Of a DNA stretch of 16,712 nucleotides, positions 150 to 204 are shown piece after piece. Within the stretch, counting starts at the first letter, position 1. Each line of letters opens with the position of its first letter. The stretch lies in the NCBI RefSeq assembly GCF_003334315.1, contig NZ_QOWR01000074.1; one strand, written 5' to 3'. A program made the translations under genes and the position numbers. Source of the DNA: Escherichia coli. GTDB taxonomy: Bacteria > Pseudomonadota > Gammaproteobacteria > Enterobacterales > Enterobacteriaceae. Below the pieces are notes generated by a model. The model was not told the DNA's origin, did not search any database, and saw nothing but the letters and a program-made list of their open reading frames with translations.

Positions 150-204
150 TGGAGCACCTCAAAAACACCATCATACACTAAATCAGTAAGTTGGCATCAT
201 CACC
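1..204 (-). mobile_element. IS1 insertion sequence, partial (left end: 23-bp IRL at 182-204 plus 5' part of insA); continues beyond window start
   Basis: Reverse complement of 1-204 matches the canonical IS1 left end GGTGATG(A/C)TGCCAACTTACTGATTTAGTGTATGATGGTG... as I recall it, continuing into insA. It is the exact reverse complement of 16509-16712 except one base at 197 in the IR. Confidence 0.93.

Follow-up and report, generated by a model that had tools for sequence, protein, structure and literature searches.

IS1 belongs to the best-studied insertion sequences, and the co-residence of sequence variants of this element in one genome is well known. Pairs of IS1 copies also flank composite transposons, in which the two copies are either direct (Tn9 type) or inverted (Tn1681 type).

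The terminal inverted repeats of IS1, IRL and IRR, are the site of several regulatory interactions. IHF sites occur at each end of the element (PMC11043490, citing earlier literature). In addition, a weak promoter partly overlaps IRL, and both InsA and InsAB' bind IRL and IRR (PMC12428005, PMC12903888). Natural variation in these repeats has been connected with mobility: when transposase is provided in trans, IS1F is the most mobile of the non-consensus copies of Escherichia coli K-12, and the proposed cause, itself an untested hypothesis, is that its ends are more similar to each other (PMC12903888). Here, we describe two inverted IS1 copies in E. coli that differ by one base within IRL.

One-base difference between two inverted IS1 copies

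The window, i.e., the whole stretch of 16,712 nucleotides that was analysed, starts and ends within IS1 (Table 1). The canonical 23-mer IRL, GGTGATGCTGCCAACTTACTGAT, has only two matches in it: one at 182-204 on the minus strand, with a single mismatch (start GGTGATGATGCC...), and one at 16509-16531 on the plus strand, with none. The number of matches expected by chance, estimated with shuffled sequences, is 0. At both ends, the identity with IS1 extends beyond the repeat and includes the insA start at nt 56 (204/204 for the right copy and 203/204 for the left copy versus K-12 IS1A).

The two arms were aligned by comparing the reverse complement of positions 1-230 with positions 16483-16712, and their likeness stops precisely at the IS1 terminus. 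Between the reverse complement of 1-204 and 16509-16712, 203 of the 204 IS1 bases are identical, and the sole mismatch is IS1 nt 8: the left copy has A (window 197; T on the plus strand), the right copy C (window 16516). These two states are referred to below as A8 and C8. The left IRL therefore matches the canonical repeat at 22 of 23 positions and the right IRL at all 23. This agrees with the original prediction, which had the two ends differing at one base of the terminal inverted repeat and otherwise the same over 204 bp; its coordinates and both of its sequences were right. E. coli homology resumes exactly at window 205 with respect to the IS-free K-12 site (...ggcaataa|gacgcgatg), so the terminal eight bases of the left copy, GGTGATGA, belong to IS1; the possibility that they are flanking DNA that resembles IS1 was rejected.

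All seven IS1 copies of K-12 MG1655 were used as reference isoforms, 204 of the 768 nt being comparable. Over these 204 nt, IS1A, IS1E, and IS1I are the same as the right copy, which was thus correctly called canonical. IS1B and IS1C each have one difference from it (nt 127) and IS1D has two (nt 50 and 127), while IS1F, in which nt 4 is A, has 21 differences from the right copy and 22 from the left one. In the comparison with isoforms that had been proposed as a check, the right copy matched K-12 elements over 204 nt and the left copy did not: nt 8 is C in every one of the seven K-12 copies and A in none, and the left copy matches no single K-12 isoform (IS1A, B, C, D, E, F, or I) at all compared positions.

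Table 1. Features of the window, with the basis of each assignment.
Feature	Position	Strand	Basis
IS1 copy, first 204 nt (IRL, promoter region, 5' insA), A8	1..204	-	K-12 IS1A identity except nt 8; runs off window
23-bp IRL, variant GGTGATGATGCCAACTTACTGAT	182..204	-	Repeat match; IS-free K-12 site puts IS end at 204
Variant base, A at IS1 nt 8 (T on + strand)	197..197	-	Alignment of the two arms
IHF core consensus match AATCAGTAAGTTG (IS1 nt 12-24 of left copy)	181..193	+	Pattern match
Promoter-like site, left copy: ATGCCA, 16 nt, TATGAT	170..197	-	Consensus scan, 9/12
insA 5' part, left copy (GTG start at IS1 nt 56)	1..149	-	K-12 IS1A annotation transferred by identity; cut by window end
Flank at left IS1 junction (left copy), candidate target-duplication sequence GACGCGAT(G)			
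Native E. coli segment, ruvX to cmtA, between the IS1 copies	205..16508	.	100% identity to complete genomes
cmtA truncated by right IS1, ORF ending ...AGLA-GDAANLLI* in IRL	15306..16535	+	ORF translation
Flank at right IS1 junction (right copy), candidate target-duplication sequence (G)GGCTGGCA			
Second IS1 copy, first 204 nt, inverted orientation, C8	16509..16712	+	0 differences from K-12 IS1A/E/I; runs off window
Canonical 23-bp IRL GGTGATGCTGCCAACTTACTGAT, C8 at 16516	16509..16531	+	Repeat match
IHF core consensus match, right copy (IS1 nt 12-24)	16520..16532	-	Pattern match
Promoter-like site, right copy: CTGCCA, 16 nt, TATGAT	16516..16543	+	Consensus scan, 9/12
insA 5' part, right copy	16564..16712	+	K-12 IS1A annotation and identity; cut by window end

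The DNA between the two copies, whose IRLs point inward, is a single piece of 16,304 bp that is found with 100% identity and equal length in many complete genomes, e.g., those of Combat13F7 and 2017.13.01CC; strain HS30-1 is also 100% identical, apart from one extra IS1. According to the gene names of HS30-1, the interior carries ruvX, yqgE, gshB, rsmE, endA, sprT, galP, metK, speA, speB, loiP, tkt, cmtB, and a truncated cmtA. The left IS1 is located in the ruvX-yggR spacer and the right IS1 interrupts cmtA near codon 402, which leaves an ORF of 409 aa that ends within IRL; the cmtA frame runs on into the repeat (16509-16535), adding GDAANLLI before a stop. Repeated palindromic units (e.g., TGCCGGATGCGGCGTGAACGCCTTATCCGAC), which we take to be ordinary E. 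coli REP/BIME elements, are also present, with two copies between speB and loiP (11314-11379 and 11427-11492, 113 bp apart) and one between galP and metK (6227-6249).

A search of the 5,426 complete E. coli genomes and of JGI metagenome contigs found neither the left nor the right junction. The right junction was found in a 5.2-kb Logan contig of SRR1122540, recorded in five samples, which is identical to window 11380-16535 and stops 27 nt into IS1; the exact 409-aa product of truncated cmtA is likewise on record in this assembly. More generally, cmtA has been struck repeatedly by IS1 across strains. Here, the insertion lies after window 16508; LR-48 has an A8 copy 26 bp further on, with a 9-bp duplication (CGCCATAGA), HS30-1 has a C8 copy at the equivalent of window 15694, and eight other complete genomes have IS1 within a few hundred bp of the same part of the gene. 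Both IS1 copies of the window end at exactly IS1 nt 204, so that the window resembles an entire draft contig with a repeat at its ends. It may be speculated that these ends correspond to a branch of the assembly graph with a trimmed k-mer overlap.

Frequency, backbones, and origin of A8

The distribution of the variant was determined with an A8-specific 32-mer, GGTGATGATGCCAACTTACTGATTTAGTGTAT, which is contained in the left copy and for which a megablast seed is possible only if nt 8 is A. Of the 5,426 complete E. coli genomes, 337 contain it, at 2,074 places in all (2,010 chromosomal and 64 plasmid); among these 337, the median per genome is 3 and the highest count 37. The corresponding C8 32-mer occurs at 67,061 places or more in 4,952 of the 5,426 genomes; among the matches listed, the median per genome is 9 and the maximum at least 65. 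A8 therefore represents about 3% of IS1 left ends in complete E. coli genomes. In PLSDB, A8 was found on 100 plasmids, 55 of them conjugative, from Escherichia (70), Salmonella (25), Klebsiella (3), Enterobacter (1), and an uncultured host (1), and on no Shigella plasmid. Searched as a 37-mer or as a 23-mer, the A8 IRL is absent from all 100,044 GTDB representative genomes.

Among the strains closest to the source, 2017.13.01CC, whose genome matches the window interior at 100% identity, has 33 A8 places. Similarly, HS30-1 has an A8 copy elsewhere in its genome, and its C8 copy in cmtA differs from the commonest A8 element at nt 8 only; both alleles thus co-reside in these lineages. A8 is an established minority allele of IS1 that is not peculiar to the left copy of the window.

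These counts bear on the possibility of a sequencing or assembly error, in which case the true base at 197 would be the complement of C and the two ends would be identical. Such an explanation could draw on the position of the window ends at IS1 nt 204, as in a draft contig that ends in a repeat, where consensus errors are commoner, and on the absence of the left junction from any independent assembly among the complete genomes and JGI contigs searched. However, the error would have recreated an allele known at 2,074 places in finished genomes, close relatives of the source included, and a random hit on exactly base 197, with exactly that nucleotide, is improbable. Moreover, nt 8 is only 8 bp from the unique flank, so that the reads or k-mers covering it should be anchored in unique sequence, which makes a consensus error due to a collapsed repeat unlikely. 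We consider an error very improbable.

Eleven full-length A8 copies from other genomes and plasmids were examined, and they fall on three backbones. Eight copies are IS1B-like (3 nt from IS1B and 8 nt from IS1A; WP_095033700.1), two are IS1A-like with T262 (2 nt from IS1A; WP_094096600.1), and one, on plasmid pEC1515-3, is 5 nt from IS1A (WP_103215986.1) and is a mosaic of the IS1B-like backbone and the IS1A-like one with T262. The first site beyond the window that separates the sampled backbones is nt 262, 58 nt past the window end. Perfect target duplications of 8 or 9 bp, at unrelated loci, border 7 of the 11 copies, which indicates that A8 ends are substrates for transposition; the duplication is missing in the other four, as expected after recombination between IS1 copies. 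The transposase genes of all 11 are annotated as intact, with the programmed frameshift.

The original prediction had offered two explanations for the difference, distinct IS1 isoforms or a recent substitution. The former fits better, A8 being a standing allele; however, the idea that A8 is the mark of one isoform was rejected, as at least three backbones carry it. Its presence on three backbones points to recombination or gene conversion among co-resident IS1 copies, or else to recurrent mutation at nt 8; judged from the backbones, both would fit.

The explanation that we favour, and that we regard as probable, is that an A8 donor passed on a standing, tolerated allele to the left copy and that the majority allele is the one in the right copy, the two representing co-resident IS1 lineages that inserted independently. 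The native segment from ruvX to cmtA would then have been bounded by two independent inverted insertions with their IRLs inward: an A8 donor copy would have transposed into the ruvX-yggR spacer, bringing A8 along, and the insertion in cmtA would have carried the canonical C8. Inheritance of A8 is the most likely origin suggested by these comparisons, since A8 donors exist in closely related strains and no extra event is required.

Alternatively, a C8 copy could have inserted next to ruvX and changed from C to A afterward. A possible route for such a mutation in place would be template switching in the quasi-palindrome that the flank ATCATCGC forms with the IS1 end (GTGATG[C>A]T). In its A8 form, the junction gives a hairpin of eight pairs, ATCATCGC pairing with GTGATGAT, at -5.0 kcal/mol, versus -3.0 with C8, and A is the base that a templated correction of this kind would yield. 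Recurrent mutation at nt 8, which the three backbones could reflect, would also make mutation in place less improbable. However, a fold of at least this quality is reached by 11% of random E. coli 20-mers joined to IRL and by 8 of 200 shuffles, and a complementary flank of this kind is found in none of the 11 other A8 copies (0/11). As A8 donors are present in closely related strains, we hold mutation in place to be quite unlikely.

Short hairpins can be drawn across both junctions, at window 196-215 and 16502-16523 (minus strand). Nt 8 is paired in each: on the left, A8 pairs with a T of the flank, and on the right, C8 pairs with IS1 nt 1. The right-junction hairpin scored as terminator-like. 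Both energies lie in the range of random flanks (11% and 13.5%). Flank-end complementarity was also considered as a general trait of IS1 junctions and was rejected, the window junctions being matched by these proportions of random flanks; in addition, no trend was found at 18 other IS1 junctions.

Functional context of nt 8

IRR is GGTAATGACTCCAACTTATTGAT in the K-12 copies, with C in place of T at nt 19 in IS1F, and it reads GGTAATGACTCC... in all of them and in the A8 copy of LR-48. Canonical IRL and IRR are mismatched at nt 4, 8, 9, 10, and 19. As nt 8 of IRR is A, the number of mismatches falls from five to four with A8; at the sequence level, this shifts IRL toward IRR by one base, in the same direction as in IS1F. 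Concerning the IHF site, both copies have a pattern match to the core consensus WATCARNNNNTTR at IS1 nt 12-24, and nt 8 is 4 bp outside it. The variant base had been placed in the end region that binds transposase and IHF: it does lie in the 23-bp repeat but not in the IHF core site. In a sigma-70 scan, nt 8 is the first base of a predicted -35 hexamer, CTGCCA with C8 or ATGCCA with A8, each in a site that matches the consensus at 9 of 12 positions. Our literature search found no paper that contains the variant sequence and no measurement of binding, promoter activity, or transposition for nt 8.

A second promoter-like site, outward and hybrid, spans the left junction (window 191-220, plus strand). 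It consists of TTGGCA in IRL, a spacer of 18 nt, and TATTAT in the flank, the latter preceded by TG; it has a 10/12 match to the consensus and would read antisense into ruvX.

It is conceivable that the A8 end is functionally different and more active, if its symmetry or the altered -35 hexamer raised transposition or changed the control by InsA. This explanation would be consistent with the loss of one mismatch between IRL and IRR, with the high mobility in trans of IS1F, whose ends are more alike (PMC12903888), with the 28-37 A8 copies carried by some genomes, and with the place of nt 8 at the start of the predicted -35 hexamer. On the other hand, only some 3% of IRL ends are A8, a genome with A8 does not hold more copies of it (median 3) than genomes with C8 hold of that allele (median 9 and maximum at least 65, among the matches listed), the match to the -35 consensus is unchanged, and the role of end similarity in IS1F is only a hypothesis of that study. 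A more active A8 end thus appears unlikely. Similarly, there is only a slight chance that A8 alters the binding of transposase or repressor, or promoter strength, through an IRR-like end and a changed -35 base in the region bound by InsA and InsAB'. If A8 were not neutral, it could contribute to the expansion of IS1 in certain commensal and ETEC lineages, where a genome carries as many as 37 A8 copies.

Under the favoured explanation, inheritance of a standing allele, A8 would be tolerated by the transposition machinery and serve as a neutral or nearly neutral marker of lineage, being neither a defect nor an assembly error. Three features of the sequence argue for such tolerance: nt 8 is among the five positions at which IRL and IRR differ, with A in IRR; it is outside the IHF core site; and the match of the predicted -35 hexamer is the same with either base. 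A8 is accordingly most readily seen as functionally neutral or nearly so.

The A8/C8 difference is real, but as a polymorphism of IS1 it is ordinary and has been catalogued before. Hundreds of RefSeq genomes and plasmids contain the exact A8 elements, which are annotated there as IS1A-family or IS1B-family. The biological importance of the difference is small; the base is a handy marker of the IS1 lineage that gave rise to an insertion, and it also helps to check draft assemblies at IS1 junctions.

Comparison with known IS1 elements and composites

A close known relative of the left copy is the commonest A8 element, which is IS1B-like (WP_095033700.1) and is found, e.g., in ETEC H10407, LR-48, and 2017.13.01CC. 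Over nt 1-204, the two do not differ at any position, A8 included. The diagnostic positions of this backbone (262, 298, 301, 304, 393, 396, and 444) fall beyond nt 204, and A8 is also found on the IS1A-like backbone with T262 and on the mosaic one. The K-12 copies IS1A, IS1E, and IS1I have the same IRL, promoter-like site, IHF core match, and insA start as the window copies, and over 204 nt they differ from the left copy only at nt 8. IS1F of K-12 likewise has a natural substitution in IRL that makes IRL and IRR more alike, although in its case this is A at nt 4, and nt 8 is C (PMC12903888).

At a larger scale, the window recalls the composites of the Tn9 and Tn1681 types in that two IS1 copies, here in inverted orientation, bracket a segment of DNA. 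Nothing within the window suggests that the 16.3-kb interior has moved as a unit: unlike the DNA carried by these composites, it is housekeeping chromosome at its native locus, colinear with the IS-free genomes and of the same length.
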